Of a stretch of DNA of 64,000 bases, positions 38,102-61,924 are shown piece by piece. Both the position numbers and the translations under genes were made by a program. The notes beneath the pieces were generated by a model, which was not told the origin of the DNA, did no database searches, and saw only the letters and a list, made by a program, of their open reading frames with translations. Each line of letters starts with the position of its first letter. Position 1 is the stretch's first letter. Origin of the DNA: Escherichia phage V18; the sequence record NC_041937.1. One strand, given 5' to 3'.

Positions 38102-38118
38102 CCCCCCCCCCCCCCCCC
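38102..38118. repeat. homopolymeric C17 tract (G17 on the coding strand)
   Basis: 17 consecutive C residues counted in the sequence, 37-53 nt upstream of the 38065 start. Confidence 0.9.
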
Positions 38119-38298
38119 GACACCCTTTATTATCCATATTGTAGGGCTTGATGCAAGTACTTCTTTAAAAATTTTTTAAGCGCCTTGGGGGCCGCTGTAG
38201 CGCTAAAATAATAAAGGCCATGCAACCGCATAGCTTTATGTGATTATATCGCTGCAGGCCCTACCATGGGCCTTATTTTGCATCATTTGCTGGAATTA

Positions 38299-46773: not shown

Positions 46774-46968
46774 TTACAGATTGCTCCAGTACAATCGGCA
46801 TTTACATTTTGGGCAATGAGGTTCTTTTATGTAATAACCGTCAGTCTTTGGAACACTTTTTGGTGCAGTTTTAAGATTGTACCTGGTAAAACATCGGAAG
46901 CAGGTTACCTCTCCCACCTGTTGATCGTTGATCCACTCACCAGAGTAAAGTTCTTTCTTGTTTCTCAT
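46774..46968 (-). CDS. small zinc-ribbon protein
   Basis: RBS GGGAGAG before ATG 46968; CFRC...CPKCKC. Confidence 0.4.
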   Translation of the reverse strand: MRNKKELYSGEWINDQQVGEVTCFRCFTRYNLKTAPKSVPKTDGYYIKEPHCPKCKCRLYWSNL

Positions 46969-47164
46969 AATTCTCTCCCAAATCATCTGCAATCTTATAC
47001 CAAAATCTCCAGCCAGAAAGCACACGGGAACACTTTGAGGATTGAATCTTTACTTGGCTCGGAAGTTCTTTTCCGTATGGTAGGTAGAAATACCCTCCTG
47101 CAGATTCGAATATAGCTCCTTCGGTTGTATCTACCACAGCAAGAATTAAGATTTTAGTCTCCAC
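46937..47164 (-). CDS. hypothetical protein
   Basis: 75 aa; own promoter-like TTGACG-17-TATAGT upstream. Confidence 0.4.
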   Translation of the reverse strand: METKILILAVVDTTEGAIFESAGGYFYLPYGKELPSQVKIQSSKCSRVLSGWRFWYKIADDLGENYEKQERTLLW

Positions 47165-49263: not shown

Positions 49264-50490
49264 TTAGAAAGGGATCGAGTCATCGAACTCATACTGTGCT
49301 GGATTCTGATCCATTGGGTCATCTTCCTCATCATTTACAGGAGGAGCGTCTACAGTGTTTTGCTGTGGAGCTGCTTCCTGTTTGGCAGCTTGAGGTTCTT
49401 GATGGTCAGTGGACCCAGCACCGTTCTTGATCCAATCGTACAACGGCTCAGCCAGATTAGTCAAGACATCTTTTGCTTCTGCAGTAATTGCCGCTGCAAA
49501 ATCATCAACTTTCGTTTTCTTGTCAATACGGCGACAAGCGTTCAACACCGCATTGCCGACACTGGCACCTACTTCATCTTCAGTTCGGTTGGTGGCTTGA
49601 GCATACTCTTTCTTAAGCTCAATGGTGACTACGTGCAGTGTTTTAGCCACGCCTAGTGGGTCGTCCACCTTAAACCCGCGATCCAGGATGATCTGCAACG
49701 CATTGATGCTATGTCCCGTCTCCACACCGATAGGGTCGTAAGAGGATTTACGCTTGCCACCAGAGCCTTGAGTGCCGTTCTCTGCCTTAGGAGGATAGGC
49801 CTTGAAACCACTGATAATGTTTCCGGTGTCTTTGTCAACAATGGCTGCAACACGACCACCTACCACCAGGTCTTTAAGCTGCTCATCAGTGACAACCATA
49901 GCACCTTCGCCAATCTTGTGGTCATTAACAGTAACCACGTTGCCAACAATCTGAGTCACATCACCATAGATGCGTAAAACGTCCTGATTGGCATTCTGCT
50001 GAGGTTTCTGCTTCTGGCCTTGTGATTGTGCACCTTGTTGCTGTTTTTGCTGCTGAGTCGCTGCTGGAGCCTCTCCTGCACCCAGCTTAACCATCTTAGC
50101 CAGTGAGCCTTTGTAATAGGTCTTACCGTTATGCTCGTTTGCCTTCAAAGGGATATTTACGATCCATCCTGGCGTTACGGTTTCCCACTTGTCATCAATC
50201 TTAACAGAGACAGAGTCTTGATGACCCGGTTTAAGCAGTTTATCACCCATGCTGATCCAGACTTCTTCACCACCTTGAAGCAGGTTATCAGAGGAATCCA
50301 GTTCAGAAATCAGTAAAGAGATGGTGTGGCTGGATTCAATTTTCTTACCTTGCCACACAGTGGTTTTAATACCTGTTGTAGGATCAGTACCTTTGATAGG
50401 CTTGATGCTGACACGTTTAATCATGCCGTGAGCCAGTAAAACAGTTTCACGCGGATTCATCGGGTTAGCGAATTGTTGAATAACGCTCAT
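49264..50490 (-). CDS. SSB-like protein with conserved acidic C-terminal tip
   Basis: 408 aa; Gln-rich linker; C-terminus EFDDSIPF like bacterial SSB DFDDDIPF. Confidence 0.5.
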   Translation of the reverse strand: MSVIQQFANPMNPRETVLLAHGMIKRVSIKPIKGTDPTTGIKTTVWQGKKIESSHTISLLISELDSSDNLLQGGEEVWISMGDKLLKPGHQDSVSVKIDDKWETVTPGWIVNIPLKANEHNGKTYYKGSLAKMVKLGAGEAPAATQQQKQQQGAQSQGQKQKPQQNANQDVLRIYGDVTQIVGNVVTVNDHKIGEGAMVVTDEQLKDLVVGGRVAAIVDKDTGNIISGFKAYPPKAENGTQGSGGKRKSSYDPIGVETGHSINALQIILDRGFKVDDPLGVAKTLHVVTIELKKEYAQATNRTEDEVGASVGNAVLNACRRIDKKTKVDDFAAAITAEAKDVLTNLAEPLYDWIKNGAGSTDHQEPQAAKQEAAPQQNTVDAPPVNDEEDDPMDQNPAQYEFDDSIPF

Positions 50491-50855
50491 TATTTGTCTC
50501 CTTGTTCTTCGTTAGTGTTTGCCGTGTGTGCAAACCCTGCCTGAATTAATTTGTCCTGAACTTGAGCCAACAGGCCCATTGCAAAACTTGTGGTCCCAGA
50601 GAGAGCCATCAGCATATCTCGTTGTTGAGCTACCCAACCTAAGGCATAGTCCAAACGACGATATTTTTCTTCTTCGCGCAGAGCCTGAAATAATTGTTCA
50701 GCCTCCGGTTGTTGTGTGAGCTCCTGAAGTCTTCCCATGAAAGAAGAAAGCACTAGCAAAAGAGACACTTGATCTTTACTTAACCCTAAGAAAAATTCTT
50801 GAGGTTGTTCTTGCTCGTTCATTGCAACCGACGTTTGATCGTTCATTTGTTCCAT
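50490..50855 (-). CDS. hypothetical protein
   Basis: 121 aa ORF. Confidence 0.4.
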   Translation of the reverse strand: MEQMNDQTSVAMNEQEQPQEFFLGLSKDQVSLLLVLSSFMGRLQELTQQPEAEQLFQALREEEKYRRLDYALGWVAQQRDMLMALSGTTSFAMGLLAQVQDKLIQAGFAHTANTNEEQGDK

Positions 50856-50938
50856 TATGGAATCTCCGATTTTATTTGAACAACATAGAAGGAGACACTA
50901 TTTTAGCATCCCCTTCTGCAAATTACAATAGGTATTTG

Positions 50939-51184
50939 TTAGCCAATCACTTCAAAAGTTCCCCAATTCCCGTCCAGCAGGCAGGTGATCGGATCCCCAT
51001 CGTCGTCAAAGATTTCAAAGTTTTCAGCATCCAGGATGTGACCCTCGAACACGATACTTTCGTCTCCACCACCAGAAATAACAGCGTATTCCTTACCTTG
51101 AGTCAAGTTTTGACACCCTTTGCCACCAAAACCTACTTCAACACAACGTACTTTCTGTCCTGCGCGAGCAACTGCTTCAGTCAT
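50939..51184 (-). CDS. hypothetical protein
   Basis: 81 aa ORF. Confidence 0.4.
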   Translation of the reverse strand: MTEAVARAGQKVRCVEVGFGGKGCQNLTQGKEYAVISGGGDESIVFEGHILDAENFEIFDDDGDPITCLLDGNWGTFEVIG

Positions 51185-51201
51185 CTTAAGGTCTCCTGAT
51201 A

Positions 51202-51522
51202 TTAATCGTCAAGTTCAAAATAGATTTTAACAGCTTCATCAAAGATTGGAATCCCGATGTTGTTGATAAGCTGCCAAACTACCATATCTTTACCTGGATC
51301 TGGGAGAATGTCAACCTTTCTCCATGCGCTGTATACCCAGTTCGGACCGCCTTCTGCACTAACTGGCAGATTTTCACCAGCTTCTTGTAGATACTTATAC
51401 AGCAAAAGATATTCTGGATACTCTAGAACACTGTCCTCTGTAGTATATAGCAGTTCACGGTATACTTTTAAGAACCCTGCTGGGGTAATGTTTTCAGTCT
51501 TCATTTGCCGCTTCTCCTGCAT
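51202..51522 (-). CDS. hypothetical protein
   Basis: 106 aa ORF. Confidence 0.4.
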   Translation of the reverse strand: MQEKRQMKTENITPAGFLKVYRELLYTTEDSVLEYPEYLLLYKYLQEAGENLPVSAEGGPNWVYSAWRKVDILPDPGKDMVVWQLINNIGIPIFDEAVKIYFELDD

Positions 51523-51676
51523 TCATCAGGTCTGCCATAGCGTCACCCACGAAGAGGACAACCACATCGTTGACAGCGTCAGCATCATCTTTGTTGACGT
51601 TGCTGAATTTAGGACACACAGCAATGATCATATAGACACCGTTACCAACCTGAACTGTCCGTGTGGTGCACATCAT
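51494..51676 (-). CDS. hypothetical protein
   Basis: 60 aa ORF starting ATGATG. Confidence 0.35.
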   Translation of the reverse strand: MMCTTRTVQVGNGVYMIIAVCPKFSNVNKDDADAVNDVVVLFVGDAMADLMNAGEAANED

Positions 51677-51882
51677 GGCGGTATTTGTGCCTTCTTTGAA
51701 GGCGAAGCTTGAAGACGCTCCTCTAAAGTGTTACCGGTAGATTTCAGAAGCGCCAGCTCGTCCAAGGCATAGATGATATCTCCGGAAGTTAGTGTTGCCT
51801 TGCCATCAGACACCATAATCACTCCATCAGCACCGTCAAGCTTAGAGGCTTCAAAGATATCAATATCCCAAATATTTTTCAT
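51673..51882 (-). CDS. hypothetical protein
   Basis: 69 aa ORF, ATGA coupling. Confidence 0.35.
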   Translation of the reverse strand: MKNIWDIDIFEASKLDGADGVIMVSDGKATLTSGDIIYALDELALLKSTGNTLEERLQASPSKKAQIPP

Positions 51883-52214
51883 TACGCTTCCTCGTCGTCT
51901 AAGTAATCATCAAGAGAGGTGAAGATTTCACCGAAGTATTCTAAGATTTCTAGCTCACGTGTGGTGCAGCAAACATAATCTCCTTGGTCGTCCTTAATAG
52001 TGGCCTCTTTACCCAGAACATCTACTTCAAATTCATCGTTCAGCAGGACGGCCCCTGTGTAAACTTTGTCAGCTGTGCAGTCCCGAAAAGCAGAGTCCTT
52101 TTCCAGATAGTCTGGCTTAACCTTGGCTTTAATTCGTTGATATTGTTTGGTCATTGCTGTGGTCTCCTTTCGTTTTGATAGGGCCATTATATTAGGCCCC
52201 ATCACTGTTGTCAA
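51882..52214 (-). CDS. hypothetical protein (paralog of 52218-52472)
   Basis: shared KP(D/E)...D-AF(R/K)DCT...KDD(Q/E)GD. Confidence 0.4.
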   Translation of the reverse strand: MTTVMGPNIMALSKRKETTAMTKQYQRIKAKVKPDYLEKDSAFRDCTADKVYTGAVLLNDEFEVDVLGKEATIKDDQGDYVCCTTRELEILEYFGEIFTSLDDYLDDEEA

Positions 52215-52217
52215 GTA

Positions 52218-52472
52218 TTAATGTTCAGGTTTTACAAAAACTACTTCATTAACAGTGCACCAGACAGAGTCTCCTTCGTCATCTTTAAAGGTAAGGCACT
52301 GTGCTGAGTTTTCCAGCTCATCAATCTCTTCTTGTGATAAAGGGGCCCCTTCTTCCAGAAGGGCTTTTACCAGAGGGTTCTCACAAAACTCTGCTTCATA
52401 AATTGCACCGACTGTGCAATCTTTAAAAGCTCGGTCATTTGCAACGCATTCTGGCTTCAAAGTAATTTTCAT
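52218..52472 (-). CDS. hypothetical protein (paralog of 51882-52214)
   Basis: 84 aa; tandem paralog. Confidence 0.4.
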   Translation of the reverse strand: MKITLKPECVANDRAFKDCTVGAIYEAEFCENPLVKALLEEGAPLSQEEIDELENSAQCLTFKDDEGDSVWCTVNEVVFVKPEH

Positions 52473-52548
52473 CTTGGCAGTCTCCTTAGTTATTTAAAAA
52501 TCAACGCTCTGTTTGTGTGAAGCATCTTATATCTAATCTTACTTCTTG

Positions 52549-52947
52549 TCAATGACTATTTTCAATCAGCCACACAGGGTCGAGGTAGATTTGTTGGCGT
52601 GTTGCCCAATGACAAACTTCATTGTACATCTGCACCTCTTTGTCTGTCAATTCACGAATAGGCTCATCTATACCCTCATTTTTGTGGTAATCCCAGTCGG
52701 CATCGATTTCCCACAGCCATGACTTGTTGTCACCACGCTTACGCACACAGAAGTCACCAGGACGGCCTGCCAGTGCATTTAAGAACTCGTTCTCTGCTCG
52801 CTCTTGAAGAATGCTAAGGAGCAAAACGTTGGAGCATGACCGTAAAATATGCTTCAGCTCACAATCATCAATCTCAACTTCAATACGTTGTTTGACTGTG
52901 TGGGTACCTTTTACTAACATCCTACCTCCTCTAAACGAACTCTGCAA
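52549..52947 (-). CDS. hypothetical protein
   Basis: 132 aa ORF. Confidence 0.4.
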   Translation of the reverse strand: MQSSFRGGRMLVKGTHTVKQRIEVEIDDCELKHILRSCSNVLLLSILQERAENEFLNALAGRPGDFCVRKRGDNKSWLWEIDADWDYHKNEGIDEPIRELTDKEVQMYNEVCHWATRQQIYLDPVWLIENSH

Positions 52948-53125
52948 GGGTTGTGTTGTTCACTGCACCACAGTAAATGGAGTATCCCAGCCCATTAGAG
53001 TGCAGAAACCACGGCGTGCCGAAATTATCTTTCACGTAGACATCGCCGTTGCTTGTAAAGGGCCAATATTCTTCACCAAGGGTGAAATACCTACTCATAC
53101 CCTCAGCCAGATACTTTACTTTCAT
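52931..53125 (-). CDS. small protein of a tandem paralog family
   Basis: LGEEYWPFTSNGDVYVKDNFGTPWFLHSNG. Confidence 0.4.
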   Translation of the reverse strand: MKVKYLAEGMSRYFTLGEEYWPFTSNGDVYVKDNFGTPWFLHSNGLGYSIYCGAVNNTTLAEFV

Positions 53126-53349
53126 AGGTCCTCTTCAACAGCTACAAACTTGGCAAGCAGGGTGGTTCCGTAGATATGATACTCACCGTTTGCCAGATGG
53201 GAGATAAACCAGGCAATCCCTTCCTCGTCTTTAATCATCTTGTTTGCACGATTTTTATCGTAATAAACCTCGTAGGTCTTTCCTTCTTTAAAGAAGGACA
53301 GGTCTGTCATCTTTTCTTCTACAAAAGTAGCTTTAACCAAAGTTGTCAT
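53122..53349 (-). CDS. small protein of a tandem paralog family
   Basis: EGKTYEVYYDKNRANKMIKDEEGIAWFISHL. Confidence 0.4.
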   Translation of the reverse strand: MTTLVKATFVEEKMTDLSFFKEGKTYEVYYDKNRANKMIKDEEGIAWFISHLANGEYHIYGTTLLAKFVAVEEDL

Positions 53350-53720
53350 TGATCGGTCTCCTTCTTGTTAAGTCTGAATACTGCAATAATAGCATTCCCA
53401 AGGTGCAGTGTCAAATCATTTCCAAGATACCACAGCATCCCACGGTCATCTTTAATGAAAGGGTAACAATCTGGTGCCTTCCAGACATTGTACACTTTGC
53501 CAACCTGAAAGAAATCAGGCCCTGTTGGGATTTTAGTTCCAGGCCACACTTGAGATACCTGAACACATTCCACCTGCATAATAACAGGGATAGTCATGGA
53601 TGTAAATGTTTTTGTTGGTTCTACTACCATAAAAGTCTCCTCTTTGCTCAACAACACTTCCATGTGTTGATAGTTTACATTAGTGACAATCACCCCAATT
53701 ACGACCACACAAGTATTCAC
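53346..53720 (-). CDS. small protein of a tandem paralog family
   Basis: VGKVYNVWKAPDCYPFIKDDRGMLWYLGND. Confidence 0.4.
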   Translation of the reverse strand: MNTCVVVIGVIVTNVNYQHMEVLLSKEETFMVVEPTKTFTSMTIPVIMQVECVQVSQVWPGTKIPTGPDFFQVGKVYNVWKAPDCYPFIKDDRGMLWYLGNDLTLHLGNAIIAVFRLNKKETDQ

Positions 53721-56457
53721 CTGTGATCTGGAACGGGACTCCCATCATTTTAGAAGCTTGCCAGAAGCAATGCACCACCATTTCACCCACAGGGCTCCAG
53801 ATAAGCTCAAGCTTTCCGTCATCGTTCAGGATAGGATCGTACACCGTGTTTCCGTCTCTGTCAACCACTTCGTTTCCGTCCTCATCCTTGCGTGCCTTTT
53901 TGTACTTATGACCGTCGAACACATGAAGTTTGGCCTCCTGCTCTGCCTTAAATGCTTCCAGTTCTTCGATTGTGTCGAAGGTGTACACAGTCTTATACTT
54001 CGGTGTGTCAGGGACTTGAAGCTGATATTCGTCATGGTAATAGATAATACGACGAACACCTTCATCGTACCACCCACGCTTCACCATTTGGTGGTGCATG
54101 AGTATCCCAACTAAGTCACACAGCGATGCACCACCATTCTGTTGGTATGCATTAAGTAAAGAGTGTTTAGATCGGGTCCAGATAGCATGACCATCAAAAG
54201 AGTAGATAAACTTCTTACCCGTTGCTTCCCAGAATTTCTCCAGATCTTCTTTACGCCCCTTAAGACCGGGGTTGGCATCCCAAAGTGCATCGATTACCCT
54301 TTGTCCCAACTCTGGAGAGATGTCCAGCATATCTGCAACTTTATCTTTTTGTGCCCCATACATAACCCCATACGTGATAGGTTTACCGTCGTTACGAGAC
54401 ACCTCTCTGCCTGCTACTTTTGTATATGCTTCAGCATTGTTTTGGTGTGCGTCCCCGTTACTTACAACATCATAATACAATCCGTTGTCGAACTCAAAGG
54501 CACCCCAAGCCCCGATAAGCTGCTCTAAGTTGGACCCGTCAATACCGATCTCAAAGTATCCTGGAGGAACACCCCACAGACTACGCATCTCTTTACCCAT
54601 GACCACTTTAGGAGATGGTTTAGGCATGTTTGCACAAATACTGTGTTTCTGTCGGGAAGTGTTTGTTAACCCAGAGCTTTTAGCAGGAAGCTTATGGTCA
54701 ATCTTCAAACGTGGATGATTAAGAAGACCAGTATCAACCTTATCCTCCTTGATTGGATCAAGTACCGATCTGCGGTTTCGCAATGATAACCACAAGACGA
54801 TATCTTTAGCCATCTCTCCGTTCAATTTTTCAAGATTCGGGCATAGGTGTCCAAACGTATCTTTCAGTTGCGGAGAAGTAATAAGTGCCCTAGCTTTTCT
54901 ACGTATTTTCCCGAATACTTCCTTTTTAATCCTTTCGGAGTTAGGAAAGCTTCGGAACTTGTGCACGGTTGTCTGGAACTTAGCATCAGTTTTGTTCCAG
55001 AAGTTGATAATCAGGTCACAATACTCTGACTCTAAAAGCTCGTCCATATATGCATATACTCGTGCATCAACATCTGCATCAGGTAGAGCTTTCTTCTTGC
55101 TGTCTTTAGTTACATCCTTAGTTCTCCACATTGTCGGAAGCCAACCAGCACTGATCAGGTATCGCTTAATGTCGTCCTGGTTGCTGATTTTCATAGGTAT
55201 CTTGCAGTCCGGCATTCGCTTCTGCTGTAGATCACTTATTGCCTGATCCATTAGCTCTTTAGGTAAAGGTTGTGGTGTGGAGGTGCCCTTAATATAGCCT
55301 CTCAAGAAATCAGCCATCTTATCGGGGTCTTTGCAGCCCATCTCTTCACACCATTTTATCCCCATCTTACTGACATCTCCTGTAGAGGTAAATGCTCGCT
55401 TAGGCGGGGCTTTGAACTCTAAAGCGCTCATATCTACAGGATAGCCAAGCTTATCTTTTAACCATTTCCAACCATTATTGGAGATTGTCCCATCTTGGTT
55501 AAACGGCTTTTCAGGGAACTTGGGCCGCTGAGACATTGACAGCTCTTTTAAAGGTAGTTGCGGTTCAACACGATCAGCGATTTCTTTCATCCACGCATCG
55601 CAACGGTCACGTAAAGCAATAGCTCCATCTATGTCAAAATACACACCCTGACGGGCCTGCAGCTCCATCAGGAAGTGCTGCAGCATGCCTCGGCGTAATG
55701 CGTTCTTCCAGGTGATCTTCTTGAACCCTTTCGGCTTCTCTTTGGCAGGATCGTACATAAAGTTCTGCATGTCAGATTTGCCGTAGAATACACCTTTTGA
55801 TTCCGCTACCAGCTCTTTCCAGAGCAGCTCCTGGATGATAACGTCCTCGAATACACGATCCACATACTTCCACAACGGAAGATCGCGCCAGTCATCAATT
55901 TGAACTTTCTGGTTACCAAGGGCGTAGCCCCATGCCATAAGGCCGTGAGGACCAACAGGTTGCATTTTCTTAGTAACCGGGTTGAATACAGCGTCCGGAC
56001 AACCTTTTGGTAAAGGGCGATCAGGCCACAAGATTCGGCTCATAGCCAACGTATCAAACAGGTTAACCTGGTGGTCGTTGATAGTCCCCATGCATTTAGG
56101 ATCACGGAACATATCAAAATGAATACCGGATAATCTTTCCATCAGCATAAAGTCATAACTGTAGCAGTTATGGCAGTTCAAAGCTGTTGGTGACCAGTCG
56201 GAATTGCCTGTAAGCCAACCTTCCAACTCCGAAAAATCTGCTATGCGAACTTCAAAATCTTTATAAAGAGTTTTCTTTGCCAGAATAAAGTTCTTAGCCT
56301 TTTCTATATCCTCCTCGGAGTAGTGTGTGCGGCTATTTAGAGGAAGGAACAGCATAAAACGGTTCTTATTCAGCTCTTTAAACAGACCGCAGTGATAATA
56401 AAGATCTGGGTCTTCCAGCAAACCGGATGACTCAAAATCGAACGACCACATACTCAT
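53680..56457 (-). CDS. DNA polymerase, family A (Pol I/T7-like) with 3'-5' exonuclease domain
   Basis: 925 aa; N-terminal FDFESSGL (Exo I), motif B-like KPITYGVMYGAQ, motif C YYHDEYQ. Confidence 0.9.
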   Translation of the reverse strand: MSMWSFDFESSGLLEDPDLYYHCGLFKELNKNRFMLFLPLNSRTHYSEEDIEKAKNFILAKKTLYKDFEVRIADFSELEGWLTGNSDWSPTALNCHNCYSYDFMLMERLSGIHFDMFRDPKCMGTINDHQVNLFDTLAMSRILWPDRPLPKGCPDAVFNPVTKKMQPVGPHGLMAWGYALGNQKVQIDDWRDLPLWKYVDRVFEDVIIQELLWKELVAESKGVFYGKSDMQNFMYDPAKEKPKGFKKITWKNALRRGMLQHFLMELQARQGVYFDIDGAIALRDRCDAWMKEIADRVEPQLPLKELSMSQRPKFPEKPFNQDGTISNNGWKWLKDKLGYPVDMSALEFKAPPKRAFTSTGDVSKMGIKWCEEMGCKDPDKMADFLRGYIKGTSTPQPLPKELMDQAISDLQQKRMPDCKIPMKISNQDDIKRYLISAGWLPTMWRTKDVTKDSKKKALPDADVDARVYAYMDELLESEYCDLIINFWNKTDAKFQTTVHKFRSFPNSERIKKEVFGKIRRKARALITSPQLKDTFGHLCPNLEKLNGEMAKDIVLWLSLRNRRSVLDPIKEDKVDTGLLNHPRLKIDHKLPAKSSGLTNTSRQKHSICANMPKPSPKVVMGKEMRSLWGVPPGYFEIGIDGSNLEQLIGAWGAFEFDNGLYYDVVSNGDAHQNNAEAYTKVAGREVSRNDGKPITYGVMYGAQKDKVADMLDISPELGQRVIDALWDANPGLKGRKEDLEKFWEATGKKFIYSFDGHAIWTRSKHSLLNAYQQNGGASLCDLVGILMHHQMVKRGWYDEGVRRIIYYHDEYQLQVPDTPKYKTVYTFDTIEELEAFKAEQEAKLHVFDGHKYKKARKDEDGNEVVDRDGNTVYDPILNDDGKLELIWSPVGEMVVHCFWQASKMMGVPFQITGEYLCGRNWGDCH

Positions 56458-56515
56458 ATACAGTTCTCCTTAAAGGGGAGGCGGTTGTACTACCCCTCCC
56501 ACTCTTTGTTAAACA

Positions 56516-58222
56516 TTAAAAAGGCGTTTCATCATCCTCAAAACCAGGGACCGGGTCAGAGGATGGATCATCGTACTGGAGGTCTTCCTGCGTGTCAACA
56601 GGCTTAACAGTAGGAGTTACAACCTTATCAGCCACAACCTTGCCCATAGGTGTTTCTACAACTGCATGCTCCTGATCCTCAAACATAGCCTGAGGTCTCC
56701 AAACAACCTCCCCGCCTTCTCCGTCTGTAAACATTTGCATTTCTTTGTCCCAGTACCAATTACTGGCATCATGGAACTTACCTGTGTGCGGGTCCATAAC
56801 CAAAGTGTCAGCAATACCTAGAGTTTTTGCTGGACGGTTTTTAAGACCTACCAGACGGACACGTCCACGAGAACGATCCACCATTTCTTCGGCCTCGACA
56901 CCTATGACTACCCAACTCAACTGTTCAAGCCCAGCCGATCCTCGCAAATTCTCTTTTCGCACAGGATACCAGAAAGGTAACGGGTTACCATCCTTGTCCT
57001 TAGGAGGCACAATCTCTGTACGTTTGAGGTGAGCGATCACCAAGATAAACACATTAAACTGCTTACAAAACGCAGCCAGTTGGGTCATAGCCATGTCCAG
57101 TTCTTTTCGCTCATCCTTAACATTAAGCCCTGAAATTACCATGGACAGGTGATCCAGCACAATATAACGACAATGGTACAGGCAAACCATTTGCTTAAGC
57201 TTGGTAATCAACTCGTCCACCGGAATAGACCCGAAATGTTTGAACACTTTGATTTTTCCAGCTTTTGCCCATGATTGGTGAATCTCTGCGTGTTCTTGAT
57301 CAGTTAAAAACTGGCTAGGATCTTCAACAAACTCTTTAACATCAAACCCTAACTGGTTTGCATACAAGGAGTTAATTGCTTCCTCTGGGTCCTCCTCAAG
57401 ATGGATCATGCATAGACGATCATCCTCTTCATAGTCATCAGCCTTCGGGCATGTCGGGTCCATTAGGTATCTTGCAATACAGTGTTCCAGTTTTTTAGCC
57501 ACGGTTGTTTTACCGCCCCCTGATGGCCCTGTAAGCATTACGAGTGTCCCTTTGTGCAAGCCTTTTAGCATTTTTTGCAGTTTTGGGAACTCTGCGCTGA
57601 TATCTACCCCGTTGGAAGTCTTTTTCCGCAAAGACTCGATAGAGAAGTCTTCTAAATCCGACACAGCATCAGGCACATATTTAACAGGATGCCGGAACAT
57701 GTTGACAATATCTTCCAGCTTTTTAGCCTTCAGCATGTCACGGATATCTTTTACACCGTCAGGATCGTTTACCTCACCGGGGTATTCTACGTGGTAAACG
57801 TTATCAGCCATCAAAAATGCTGCAATATTGTGCGTGGCCTCGACACCTTTAATGACGTGTTTTTGCTTCTCTACCTCGTTAGCTGCATCGTTATCCATTG
57901 CCAGCACAACTGTTCCATAGCTACGGATAAACTTCTCATTGTTTGCAAAAGTATCTACTGCGTTTGCACATCCACAGTTAATTCCAACAAAAGGTAGGCA
58001 AGGTTTTCCTGCCAGATCACCACCGTTGATAACTGCGTCGATCCCGTCCTGGACCTCTTTAGCCCACTGCTTCACCTTTGCCGGGGCTTTAGCGTTGGTG
58101 AGAATCCCTTTTACTTGTATCTGATATGCAGCCTGCCATGCTGCAATAACATCACCTTCTCCCTCACAAACGTTAATCTGCTTACGGTTGTTGGAAGATG
58201 CACACAGCTTTTGACCAAACAT
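56516..58222 (-). CDS. primase-helicase (T7 gp4-like): TOPRIM plus DnaB-family helicase
   Basis: 568 aa; TOPRIM VLAMDNDAANE; Walker A TGPSGGGKT; acidic C-terminus ending EDDETPF. Confidence 0.85.
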   Translation of the reverse strand: MFGQKLCASSNNRKQINVCEGEGDVIAAWQAAYQIQVKGILTNAKAPAKVKQWAKEVQDGIDAVINGGDLAGKPCLPFVGINCGCANAVDTFANNEKFIRSYGTVVLAMDNDAANEVEKQKHVIKGVEATHNIAAFLMADNVYHVEYPGEVNDPDGVKDIRDMLKAKKLEDIVNMFRHPVKYVPDAVSDLEDFSIESLRKKTSNGVDISAEFPKLQKMLKGLHKGTLVMLTGPSGGGKTTVAKKLEHCIARYLMDPTCPKADDYEEDDRLCMIHLEEDPEEAINSLYANQLGFDVKEFVEDPSQFLTDQEHAEIHQSWAKAGKIKVFKHFGSIPVDELITKLKQMVCLYHCRYIVLDHLSMVISGLNVKDERKELDMAMTQLAAFCKQFNVFILVIAHLKRTEIVPPKDKDGNPLPFWYPVRKENLRGSAGLEQLSWVVIGVEAEEMVDRSRGRVRLVGLKNRPAKTLGIADTLVMDPHTGKFHDASNWYWDKEMQMFTDGEGGEVVWRPQAMFEDQEHAVVETPMGKVVADKVVTPTVKPVDTQEDLQYDDPSSDPVPGFEDDETPF

Positions 58223-58239
58223 CTGGGAGTTGGCCTTTA

Positions 58240-58509
58240 CTATGCTACTACAGACCAGTGCCCTTTCTGCTCTTTCGGCTTAGACCAGTCACGCTTTTTG
58301 AAACCAGACAGATTTCCGTAGCGGTCGTAATATGGGAAATATGTTGCAGTGACTGTCACACCGTCTTCTTGGGACAATGCTGATCGCACACCAAAATATT
58401 GTGCAGCCATCAGACCGATATTTTGTTGTGGGACAGGGACAATTTTAGTATTTTCTAAAACAGTCTCTACAGTTTCAACCTCTTTTTCATCACGATAGTC
58501 TCGTTTCAT
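58240..58509 (-). CDS. primase RNA-polymerase-domain N-terminal segment, frame-separated from the primase-helicase
   Basis: RSALSQEDG...YDRYGNLSGFKKRD resembles the T7 gp4 segment YSALTARGIS...YRDQNGNIVSQKVRD; no Cys4 zinc-binding domain. Confidence 0.55.
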   Translation of the reverse strand: MKRDYRDEKEVETVETVLENTKIVPVPQQNIGLMAAQYFGVRSALSQEDGVTVTATYFPYYDRYGNLSGFKKRDWSKPKEQKGHWSVVA

Positions 58510-58582
58510 ACTACCCCCACTTTTGTATCTTGTTGCAACTGGGTTAGGTTCTCCATAGCGGCTATATGCAGAGGATATAAAC

Positions 58583-59368
58583 TTATTCCCCTCTCCTTAC
58601 TACAGGCTCGTTTGCTAAGAATACAGCTTTTGCCCAGCCACGTGGTGTGAGGCTTCGAATCATCTTCGTTCTTGCACTCTTTCCACCAAGCTTGGCGTGT
58701 TGCATGGAATACCCGCTAACCACGTCAACTATTTGCGGGACAGGTTTTGTGTCCGGGATTATAAATCCATTACCTATCCAGCCGCAAGTTATTTTTGGAT
58801 AGGCATCACGTGGAGCTATAAATTCAGGAAACCATGGGTTTACATCATCCTCAGGTAAATACCCGCCATAGTCAGAAGGATGAAAACGGTAATCAGGTTT
58901 GCGCCACAGTGTGGACATAACACCAACAGGATTCTCTACATGCCACGGGCAATCGTAAATCTCTCCCAGCTCTTCCGCAACCCGAGCATCCTTTACAGCA
59001 TTAATTTGGATCATGGGGTCCTTAGCCAGCTTTTTCTTAAAATGTGCAGCACCCGATACCGCTAAATGCGTGCACGGAGGAAATGCAAGAATAAAGTCTG
59101 GAGCTGGATACATGCAAAAAGTTTCCTGAGGGAACCACGGGTCAATCCAATAGTCAACATAGTGAATGTTGGGATGATCGGTTATCACCTCTGCATAACT
59201 GCCGTGATCAGCACCTTCTGCGTTAAAGCACAGGCACAGATATCCAGCTTTTGCCCAGTCAATGACTGCACCACCAGACCCGTCAAATAGACTCCACACA
59301 ACACCTTTGTGGTAGTGTTCTTTGTAGATAAATTTCAATTTGCTGTCTCCTAATGCAAAAAGCCCCAC
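58583..59368 (-). CDS. putative DNA cytosine-5 methyltransferase-like protein
   Basis: 261 aa; SLFDGSGG (motif I-like), FPPCTH (PC motif), HVENPVG (ENV motif). Confidence 0.5.
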   Translation of the reverse strand: MGLFALGDSKLKFIYKEHYHKGVVWSLFDGSGGAVIDWAKAGYLCLCFNAEGADHGSYAEVITDHPNIHYVDYWIDPWFPQETFCMYPAPDFILAFPPCTHLAVSGAAHFKKKLAKDPMIQINAVKDARVAEELGEIYDCPWHVENPVGVMSTLWRKPDYRFHPSDYGGYLPEDDVNPWFPEFIAPRDAYPKITCGWIGNGFIIPDTKPVPQIVDVVSGYSMQHAKLGGKSARTKMIRSLTPRGWAKAVFLANEPVVRRGE

Positions 59369-59389
59369 CCTTTCGGGCAGGGCCTAGTG

Positions 59390-59872
59390 TTAAACCCGGA
59401 TACCTATTGTATACTCGGTGGATACCAATGTCAAATCTAAATTTAAAATTTCTTGCATCTCATAATATGCGTCCAGGGTGAGATACATTTCCCCATCCTT
59501 TTCTACATACTTGTCCAAGTGCTTGAGGCATTTCGGATAACTATCAAGTGCAGCTTTCAGACACTCAAATTCTGTGCTGTTGATGAATCCTTCCATCTTA
59601 GCTACCCGTTCTGGAGTAACGATAGCACTGTAGTGAGATTTAGCTTCCTGAATGCAATGGGTCCAAGCATCAACTTTCTCTTCAAAAAGTCCGAAGAACT
59701 TCTTTTTGGTGAGCTTCAGATTCTTTAAGTGCTTAAGCACTCGGTTGCCGATCACAGCTACATCACGAAACTTAAGGATCACTTTGTCGATATCCTCGCG
59801 GCCTATTTTCACAAAGCAAGCCTCGCACATTTCAGGAGTGGCATAGCCTACTTTCCACATAAAATCTGACAT
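59390..59872 (-). CDS. hypothetical protein
   Basis: 160 aa ORF. Confidence 0.4.
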   Translation of the reverse strand: MSDFMWKVGYATPEMCEACFVKIGREDIDKVILKFRDVAVIGNRVLKHLKNLKLTKKKFFGLFEEKVDAWTHCIQEAKSHYSAIVTPERVAKMEGFINSTEFECLKAALDSYPKCLKHLDKYVEKDGEMYLTLDAYYEMQEILNLDLTLVSTEYTIGIRV

Positions 59873-59884
59873 AGCACTCTCTCC

Positions 59885-60280
59885 TTATTCCTGAAAAGCA
59901 ACGATATCATATGAACTTGCAGATGATCCTGGTGAAGAATGACTCCAGTCTAGGTCATCAGAGTAGTCAGCGTACTGTGCACCACTACGTAGTTTGTATT
60001 TTACCCACTTACCTGGTGCAGGGTTTTCACCACCTTCCCATACTTCCCAGCCTTCTGGCAGGCCGTCCTGGGGGTAGTCATCCACCTCACTAATAATCTT
60101 AGGGTTTGGCACCAAGATCCCCGCAGGCTCTTCCTTCCGGATAAGTGTCCACACAGCGCAGGTGTCTGAGCAGGCGCATGATAGCAAAGTATATCCACTA
60201 TTCAGAACTTCTGCAAGCTCTTTTTCAGCATCTTCTAATTTGGTTAAGTGGTATTGGATAATCTTCACACCTGTAATCAT
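59885..60280 (-). CDS. hypothetical protein
   Basis: 131 aa ORF. Confidence 0.4.
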   Translation of the reverse strand: MITGVKIIQYHLTKLEDAEKELAEVLNSGYTLLSCACSDTCAVWTLIRKEEPAGILVPNPKIISEVDDYPQDGLPEGWEVWEGGENPAPGKWVKYKLRSGAQYADYSDDLDWSHSSPGSSASSYDIVAFQE

Positions 60281-60624
60281 CAGAAACCTCCCACTTCTTC
60301 AGCAAATGCAGCTGCTGTCGTCGCTGCATCCAGATAGGACTCTAGTTCACGGGATGCACGTTTGTAAATTGAGTGGCGCATATCGTTTGGCAGTTGGTGG
60401 AAGTCCACCTCTTCACCGTTGTGGTAAACATGCACATCGGTAATTTGTCTAAATCCGTAATAGTCAACATCAGAATCACGGCACTCTGGGTCTGGCAACT
60501 GGACAACTGCCTGAGCTTCCACAGTGAACATATCGTCAAGTTCGAAATCGATTTCAAAAGTGTATGGTTTATAACGTTTCATCATTTGATTGTGCTCTTT
60601 ATTGATCAGACTTATCTTTCGCAA
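60280..60624 (-). CDS. hypothetical protein
   Basis: 114 aa ORF. Confidence 0.4.
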   Translation of the reverse strand: MRKISLINKEHNQMMKRYKPYTFEIDFELDDMFTVEAQAVVQLPDPECRDSDVDYYGFRQITDVHVYHNGEEVDFHQLPNDMRHSIYKRASRELESYLDAATTAAAFAEEVGGF

Positions 60625-61924
60625 TTAAGGTCGGGGTAAGTTTGTAATAACGGAAGCCACCACCACCTTTCCAGTTTACAGACTTAGAAATACCACCTTG
60701 ATCTTCGCCATCGATCACTTTTTCCAAGCGCGGAATAATATGGGTATGACAATGATCACCTAGCTCGATTGAGATCCAACGTCTTTTCATCTTGTGAGCT
60801 ACAGCAGCAGTAGTTCCCGAACCACCGAATGAATCCAATACCAAATCGCCTTCTCGCGTACACATTTCTAAAATCCGCTTCAAAAGAGCTTCTGGTTTTT
60901 TCCCATTTTTGAAACTGACGCCGCCTTCATTTGCTATTCCATTCCAACTAATGTCTGTCCAAACATCAGTTATTAGTTCCGCAGGTTGCATCTCACCGTC
61001 AATTTCCAAAAGTCTATTGGAGTAAAAGACCATTTGCCTACCATTTGCGATATAAAATCCTTCAACATCCTCATTTGGATGTACATAAACCTTATCCCTA
61101 TCTTTCTTTGACTTCTCGATAGTTTCTTTTCTCTTTATTTTAGCACCACCACCAATTGCAACAGATTGAAATACACGTTCTGCATTATCAGTTGCGAATT
61201 GTGCTAATTCATCATCGAATGTATCAGGCAGTTTTTTCTTGGCTTCTTTTGCATCTTTATAACCATTGGCCTTTGCAAACGCATCGGCAATACCGCACCA
61301 CGTCCAATTTTTATAATGGTCATCCGGGTTTAATAGGTATTTGTTATATCCTGTATCATACCCTTTAGGTATATAGATTTTGTTAAGCGGTTTCTGGGTG
61401 CGATCTTTTGCATATACAAGCAAAAAGTTTGCTGTGGAGAAAACTGTGGCTCCTGTTGCCTTAAATCCCGAAGGGGAATTTGTGGTCATCGATATGGTAT
61501 TTAACTGATTTGCACGACCAAAAATCTCGTCCATCAAAACTTTTAAATACGCCATTTCGCAATCATCTAAGTGAACGAATATTACCCCATCATCACTTAG
61601 AAGATTACGAATTATTTCTAACCTATCCCTCATTAAGCCCAGCCAAATGGAATGCTCCAGGCTATCATCGTAGTGCTCAAAAGCCCTTCCGGTATTGAAT
61701 GGTGGGTCTATGTAAACACACTTCACTTTGCCTGCATACTCTTGCTCTAGCGCCTTCAATGCTAATAAGTTATCTCCAAAAATCAGTTTATTATCAAAAA
61801 TATCGTTTTCGGTCACTTTCTGGCTGTGGTAAGACTTGCTAGAATCCTCTAACAAAATGTGCGGCTCTAACTTTTTGCGCTCGTTTTTACCTATCCAGGT
61901 AAGTTCTAATTTGGTTTTGCTCAT
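60599..61924 (-). CDS. DNA N6-adenine/N4-cytosine methyltransferase, type III Mod / ParB-methylase-like
   Basis: 441 aa; YIDPPFNTG (DPPF motif) upstream of LDSFGGSGTT (SAM-binding); N-terminal ELTWIGK. Confidence 0.8.
   Translation of the reverse strand: MSKTKLELTWIGKNERKKLEPHILLEDSSKSYHSQKVTENDIFDNKLIFGDNLLALKALEQEYAGKVKCVYIDPPFNTGRAFEHYDDSLEHSIWLGLMRDRLEIIRNLLSDDGVIFVHLDDCEMAYLKVLMDEIFGRANQLNTISMTTNSPSGFKATGATVFSTANFLLVYAKDRTQKPLNKIYIPKGYDTGYNKYLLNPDDHYKNWTWCGIADAFAKANGYKDAKEAKKKLPDTFDDELAQFATDNAERVFQSVAIGGGAKIKRKETIEKSKKDRDKVYVHPNEDVEGFYIANGRQMVFYSNRLLEIDGEMQPAELITDVWTDISWNGIANEGGVSFKNGKKPEALLKRILEMCTREGDLVLDSFGGSGTTAAVAHKMKRRWISIELGDHCHTHIIPRLEKVIDGEDQGGISKSVNWKGGGGFRYYKLTPTLIAKDKSDQ

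Follow-up and report, generated by a model that had tools for sequence, protein, structure and literature searches.

The primase-helicase gene of Escherichia phage V18 is written in two frames, most likely through sequence error, and belongs to a clade without the N-terminal zinc-binding domain

The DNA analyzed here is a stretch of 64,000 nucleotides from Escherichia phage V18 (NC_041937.1), hereafter the window, whose minus strand carries a T7-gp4-like primase-helicase gene written as two successive open reading frames (ORFs). The 5′ fragment of the gene (58240–58509) runs from ATG 58509 through 89 codons to a TAG stop at 58242–58240, and the 3′ fragment (56516–58222) is an ORF of 568 amino acids (aa) that opens at ATG 58222 and ends with a stop at 56516. 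Both ORFs were found as the original prediction had described them, in different frames: that of the 568-aa ORF is –1 (+2) relative to that of the 89-aa ORF and stays open upstream as far as 58279, so that the two frames overlap by 40 nt. No ATG, GTG or TTG occurs upstream of 58222 within this open stretch (to 58279). Homologs have an internal M or F where the ATG at 58222 stands, its Met is not conserved as a start, and the ribosome-binding site ahead of it (AAAGG, 13 nt upstream) is poor. As written, primase and helicase are thus distributed over two ORFs; in every relative they lie in one, and the difference is a single base, probably an error.

Profile searches place the two ORFs one behind the other in the same protein family. 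The 89-aa ORF matches PHROG 239 (phrog_239, ‘DNA primase/helicase’) at profile positions 101–174 (E = 5e-17) and the 568-aa ORF matches it at positions 183–633 (E = 6e-133); the consecutive profile positions, together with conserved synteny, assign both to PHROG 239. By homology, the two are consecutive pieces of one predicted T7-gp4-like primase-helicase, a gene of rV5-type (Vequintavirus) phages that is already known and widely annotated as the Vequintavirus primase-helicase. The shorter ORF, which carries K71 and K79, covers the beginning of the N-terminal subdomain in the DnaG/gp4-type RNA-polymerase domain, and the longer one holds the remaining primase domain from the FGQ motif on, the TOPRIM fold (EGEGD, DND) and a superfamily 4 (SF4) helicase of the DnaB/gp4 type. 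The assignment of the C-terminal part to SF4 (DnaB/RecA-like) helicases of gp4-type enzymes is straightforward, with Pfam matches to AAA_25 (E = 1.8e-15) and DnaB_C (E = 1.8e-13) and matches to the helicase chains of T7 gp4 (E = 3e-16). On the primase part Pfam returns no more than Toprim_2 and Toprim_4 at E values of about 0.1–0.2, and because it is blind to this part, profile, PHROG and fold searches were required. A profile built from eight homologs matches the T7 gp4 primase fragment 1nui (E = 2.7e-7). The AlphaFold model of a homolog that is 74% identical (P0001) is confident across residues 40–300, and Foldseek searches with it return T7 gp4 first (5ikn, 1nui and 6n9u; E = 1e-11 to 1e-8); on the 196-residue primase chain 6n9u_F the TM-score is 0.83. 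Bacterial DnaG RNA-polymerase domains rank next. The 1nui match and the fold search bear out the earlier proposal that the ORF at 58240–58509 resembles the RNA-polymerase domain of T7 gp4, and the further proposal that the 568-aa ORF begins with the gp4 segment that follows is upheld by the HMMER alignment, which pairs VVGIVKANSQMFGQKL with T7 TTGSHKSDALFGKHL. In the repaired reading, in which the two frames are rejoined, K71, K79, E116, D206 and D208 align with T7 K122, K128, E157, D207 and D209. The essential lysines and the TOPRIM acidic ligands of the RNA-polymerase domain come together in this repaired reading alone; as the window is written, residues 89–96 are gone.

The window belongs to a Vequintavirus (an rV5-like coliphage), and the region is 96–98% identical to Vequintavirus genomes, with 97–98% for those shown to share its gene order. 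It is matched by 119 phage records, 112 of which cover at least 80% of the query. One ORF of 692 aa is the state of the gene in at least 116 GenBank phage records and six metagenome or SRA assemblies. In the four relatives that were examined in full (EmilHeitz, bov10K2, inoa and 241Ecol014PP) the gene is one coding sequence of 2079 bp encoding 692 aa. The closest relative of the window is EmilHeitz, whose primase-helicase is QXV77978.1 (692 aa). Metagenomic and SRA contigs, reached via the neighboring PIF1-like helicase, agree: a 692-aa gene is called at this position in all six of these independent contigs, and the four loci that can be read directly at the break site all have GG plus ATC there, with the sequence GTTGTTGGCATCG. 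The two-frame arrangement is conserved in none of the relatives examined, all of which are in frame. The comparison with the Vequintavirus enzyme is otherwise one of near identity. After a one-base repair the window protein is 99–100% identical to QXV77978.1, and the gene order of methyltransferase, primase-helicase and family A DNA polymerase is shared. The window differs in that its copy is broken by a private 1-nt deletion, and in that it has neither the upstream ATG of its relatives nor the homing endonuclease gene found upstream in the closest of them.

At the base level, alignments place the frame change at a private 1-nt deletion, a gap on the plus strand between 58245 and 58246. There, TATGC-TAC in the window stands against GATGCCTAC in the relatives; seen on the minus strand, GTAGTAGGCATC has become GTAGTAGCATAG (GG to G), the minus strand of EmilHeitz reading GTAGTAGGCATCG at the site where the window has GTAGTAGCATAG. 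Four nucleotides from the deletion lies a private substitution at 58241 (C to A on the minus strand), which is synonymous in the downstream frame (ATC to ATA, Ile) and creates the TAG stop in the upstream frame. When a 111-nt query over the break was searched, all phage records among the matches listed (60) spanned 112 nt, and the best identity among them was 98.2%, which is exactly the gap plus the mismatch at 58241. Restoring one G gives identities of 100% (residues 7–121) and 99.5% (residues 123–697) to the EmilHeitz protein, so that at the protein level the flanks of the break are undecayed in both frames. Exact and degenerate DNA patterns of the window’s variant had no match in IMG/VR, JGI metagenomes or GTDB genomes, and look-ups of the exact products found neither the 89-aa nor the 568-aa protein on record, nor the DNA polymerase of the window.

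The break falls in a conserved part of the protein. When close and distant homologs are aligned, H84, V88, G89, V91, K92, F98, G99 and Q100 are invariant, and residues 89–96, which include G89, V91 and K92, are missing from both products as the window is written. G89 is the equivalent of T7 G134 and is conserved in 110 of 114 representatives of 50%-identity clusters (81 of the 83 that lack a zinc-binding domain and 29 of the 31 that bear one). On the P0001 model, the break sits within the β-rich N-terminal subdomain of the primase, off any domain boundary. In T7 gp4, the essential lysines K122 and K128 adjoin the primer-contacting peptide T132–K144 (PMC9198812).

The deletion is one of many. 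EmilHeitz and 241Ecol014PP, whose divergence is similar, served for a comparison across the whole window, in which an indel counted as private to a genome when the same event was seen against both of the others. The substitution branch lengths are about equal (0.016 for the window, 0.018 for EmilHeitz and 0.0195 for 241Ecol014PP), and the window has 69 private indels as against 25 in EmilHeitz and 18 in 241Ecol014PP. Private one-base deletions number 37, 12 and 7, respectively, and private one-base insertions 19, 10 and 8. A symmetric tblastn comparison of ORFs of at least 100 codons finds eight private frameshift junctions in the window and none in either relative. Besides the one in the primase-helicase (~58244), these lie in genes for an HNH endonuclease (~2604), an N6-adenine methylase (~7684/7690), NrdD (~16766) and PhoH (~19250), and in further conserved ORFs (~27895, ~39886 and ~40558). 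The deletion in PhoH is likewise absent from every phage record among the matches listed. Of the private one-base deletions, five of 37 lie within 6 nt of a GATC site (1.9 expected, P about 0.04), a weak excess, and GATC sites are more frequent in the window (355) than base composition predicts (about 240). With several methylases encoded by the phage, the excess near GATC faintly suggests base-calling errors linked to methylation.

Two further differences were seen elsewhere in the window. An intergenic run of 19 C stands at 38103–38121, opposite GCCTCACCGCCCCCCCC in EmilHeitz; it could be a genuine hypervariable tract or have arisen in assembly. An N6/N4 DNA methylase ORF at 60599–61924 measures 441 aa in the window, as it does in four metagenome contigs; the EmilHeitz annotation gives 345 aa, with an A-run longer by one base, and the gene is missing from 241Ecol014PP and two other contigs.

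Taken with the state of the gene in other phages, these counts make it highly probable that the frame change is a sequencing or assembly error and not biology. This is judged the most likely cause because the one-base gap is absent from all other copies and the window carries many private one-base gaps: eight fresh frameshifts in conserved genes, with undecayed flanks and ordinary substitution divergence, indicate a technical origin. The homology of the two ORFs, the position of the indel, its absence elsewhere and the excess of private indels are all observed, and from these we infer a cause that is most likely technical. One missing base (58245/58246) beside a miscalled base (58241) would then interrupt a single ordinary gene, and the real phage would make one protein of about 665–692 aa, like all its relatives, in which a DnaG-type RNA-polymerase domain with a TOPRIM fold would be fused to an SF4 hexameric helicase. 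Several points weigh against this account. The private one-base deletions show no preference for long homopolymers, many of their contexts being non-homopolymeric, and all four bases are lost about equally often (A 10, C 11, G 9, T 7), so that no single known platform signature is evident among them. The technical origin is a matter of probability, and the window could represent an unusual or defective genome. The downstream ATG, 17 nt past the stop, could in principle permit reinitiation and yield a helicase-only product. A deletion that is genuine would mean a defective genome, or a variant of a mixed population or metagenome with complementation from co-infecting intact genomes, or a TOPRIM-helicase made by reinitiation at ATG 58222. 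The deletion is present in the sequence as given, its companion ATG is near enough to the stop for termination-reinitiation, the TOPRIM and helicase parts are intact in the downstream ORF, and the private deletions have no strong homopolymer signature. Such a history would, however, need conserved genes of one genome, among them PhoH, NrdD and a methylase, to have taken eight independent frameshifts at ordinary substitution divergence, with both flanks of this one still 99–100% identical to intact relatives, and a start at 58222 would have to work behind its poor ribosome-binding site. According to established work on T7, that phage cannot grow with the helicase-only form of gp4, which counts further against it, and we consider a genuine mutation unlikely.

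The original prediction had left open an indel or a naturally split primase, and its two halves fared differently: the indel is supported, as the base missing here is present in every other copy examined, and the natural split is not, as the arrangement is private and comes without a recoding signal. A split or recoded primase would take the form of a –1 shift within the 40-nt overlap, or of a primase-helicase assembled from pieces of 89 and 568 aa. The second frame is indeed –1 relative to the first, which is the direction of most programmed frameshifts, and the frames do overlap; but the 40-nt shift window (58279–58240) contains neither an X XXY YYZ heptamer nor a homopolymer run, and the arrangement is found in no relative (the gene is in frame in at least 116 records and 6 assemblies), hence there is no selection for it. 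A two-piece enzyme would moreover be cut at a near-invariant Gly inside the β-rich subdomain, with residues 89–96 in neither piece. Programmed frameshifting and transcriptional slippage were rejected for lack of a slippery heptamer or homopolymer in the overlap and of any conservation, and we regard a programmed frameshift or an evolved two-piece enzyme as very unlikely, a split or recoded gene of either kind being scarcely credible here. The arrangement also differs from the known short form of T7 gp4. The 56-kDa protein of T7 is a shorter product from an internal Met that is without the zinc-binding domain and keeps the helicase; its start is in frame, conserved, and placed at the boundary between the zinc-binding and RNA-polymerase domains. 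The second ORF of the window is out of frame with the first, starts inside the RNA-polymerase domain, and has a Met that is not conserved as a start.

With the frame restored, the N-terminus can be read as a whole. The only Cys and His residues among the first 115 of the repaired protein are H84, C103 and C115, so that residues 1–102 contain no Cys. Upstream of ATG 58509, the minus strand continues in frame with 27 codons (58510–58590, GNKFISSAYSRYGEPNPVATRYKSGGS) that correspond to the N-terminal extension of the 692-aa protein of the relatives and specify neither Cys nor His; the extra N-terminal residues of the relatives are Cys-free as well. In P0001 the residues corresponding to this extension (1–37) are predicted to be disordered (pLDDT below 50). 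The N-terminal Cys4 zinc-binding domain of T7 gp4-type enzymes is therefore absent, as had been noted before from the lack of a Cys4 zinc ribbon ahead of the primase segment, and an in-frame zinc domain that sequence correction might have brought to light upstream does not appear in the repaired protein. C115, C170, C177 and C179 were considered as an internal zinc site and rejected, as they are not conserved in the homologs P0002–P0006.

An exhaustive profile search extended this to the family. It returned 837 related cluster representatives, of which 114 were analyzed, being those among the best 150 that are at least 480 aa long. In 83 of the 114, at most 55 residues precede the primase domain; the median Cys count there is 0, and none of these representatives reaches four. 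The other 31 are more distant; their primase domain is preceded by 60 residues or more, with 4 Cys as the median and obvious CxxC...CxxC motifs. The zinc-less representatives retain the equivalents of T7 E157 (83/83), D207 (80/83), D209 (79/83), K128 (76/83) and G134 (81/83). Across these predicted proteins the missing zinc-binding domain is genuine, clade-wide and independent of the frame change.

In comparison with T7 gp4 (PDB 1nui, 1q57, 5ikn and 6n7i), the RNA-polymerase domain, TOPRIM fold and SF4 helicase are colinear in the phage clade, and the equivalents of K122, K128, G134, E157, D207 and D209 are conserved. The differences are that the phage protein has some 30–50 Cys-free residues, predicted to be disordered, in place of the Cys4 domain; that in the phage family two extra helices (~45 residues) separate the EGE motif from the next TOPRIM strand; and that identity in the primase part is only about 19%. 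Metazoan Twinkle (PDB 7t8b and 8e2l), which the phage sequence matches weakly at the linker and Walker A region, likewise belongs to the gp4-like proteins and lacks the Cys4 zinc finger; in human and Drosophila Twinkle the conserved primase residues of motifs IV and V have been lost and there is no primase activity (PMC3610141). The phage clade differs in retaining E157, D207 and D209. The loss of catalytic motifs that would mark an inactive primase remnant of the Twinkle kind is not seen, the motif IV Glu being present in 83/83 and the motif V DxD in 79–80/83 of the representatives without a zinc-binding domain.

The original prediction had proposed looking through the genome for a separate primase partner with a zinc ribbon. 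Zinc-ribbon motifs were sought in every window ORF of 40 aa or more; together with Pfam, this found no separate primase and no primase-type zinc ribbon, and no second primase is annotated in EmilHeitz at positions 1–50,000 and 60,000–139,980 (50,001–59,999 excluded), so that such a partner was met neither among the window ORFs nor in the parts of EmilHeitz covered. The zinc-ribbon-like ORFs of the window are a DnaQ-like exonuclease, NrdD with its zinc site, and an 83-aa PF23903 protein. The exonuclease (6281–7270) ends in a C-terminal CxxC...CxxC zinc ribbon, and the 83-aa protein (46774–47025) matches the Pfam family ‘Phage zinc binding domain’ (PF23903, E = 1.6e-22); nothing ties either to priming. 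The helicase adjacent to the primase-helicase is PIF1/Dda-like. Literature searches on phage gp4-like primases that lack a zinc finger, and on the Vequintavirus primase, turned up no specific paper.

Upstream of the primase-helicase lies a Dcm-like C5 methyltransferase gene (58583–59368, minus strand), whose 3′ end (58588–58594) forms a junction, and downstream lies the gene for a 925-aa family A DNA polymerase. EmilHeitz, HeinrichReichert and Phage 203/206 have a homing-endonuclease gene between the methyltransferase and the primase-helicase that is absent from the window, and the window retains the flanking sequence variants of the endonuclease-bearing relatives despite missing the gene itself. 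At the junction (GGAGA/GGGG) the ATG that starts the 692-aa protein of the relatives is lost, and the next start is ATG 58509; the 27 codons at 58510–58590 are without a start codon because that ATG is missing. The junction looks like an imprecise loss of the endonuclease gene. Elsewhere in the family, among the homologs P0002–P0004, P0007, P0009, P0021, P0025, P0030 and others, three of 353 aa stop inside the Walker A motif (GPSGAG), and many relatives of 800–1000 aa have intein-like insertions in the helicase domain, for example between LRG and SAALEQ or after the P-loop. The primase-helicase family is a hot spot for inteins, introns or both. Sixteen unannotated records named ‘Campylobacter phage’ (MG0656xx) are ~96% identical to the rV5-like E. 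coli phage of the window, and their Campylobacter host label looks doubtful.

What stood out as a split primase in the window most likely reflects the quality of the sequence and not the biology of the phage. As the window carries about eight spurious frameshifts on this account, other observations of ‘split genes’ or ‘short ORFs’ within it are suspect. The enzyme without a zinc finger is of modest interest in its own right, being a gp4-type protein with an intact catalytic center, and it concerns the whole Vequintavirinae-related clade, not this locus. Template recognition by T7 gp4 and by bacterial DnaG is held to depend on the zinc ribbon. To judge from its conserved residues, the rV5-type enzyme probably still primes despite the missing zinc domain, and the template would then be contacted through the RNA-polymerase domain, the helicase or another factor. 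Provided that the members of this zinc-less gp4-like clade are active primases, it is a tentative but real possibility, falling somewhat short of an even chance, that they would pick priming sites without a zinc ribbon, through another mechanism of recognition or by sequence-independent priming.

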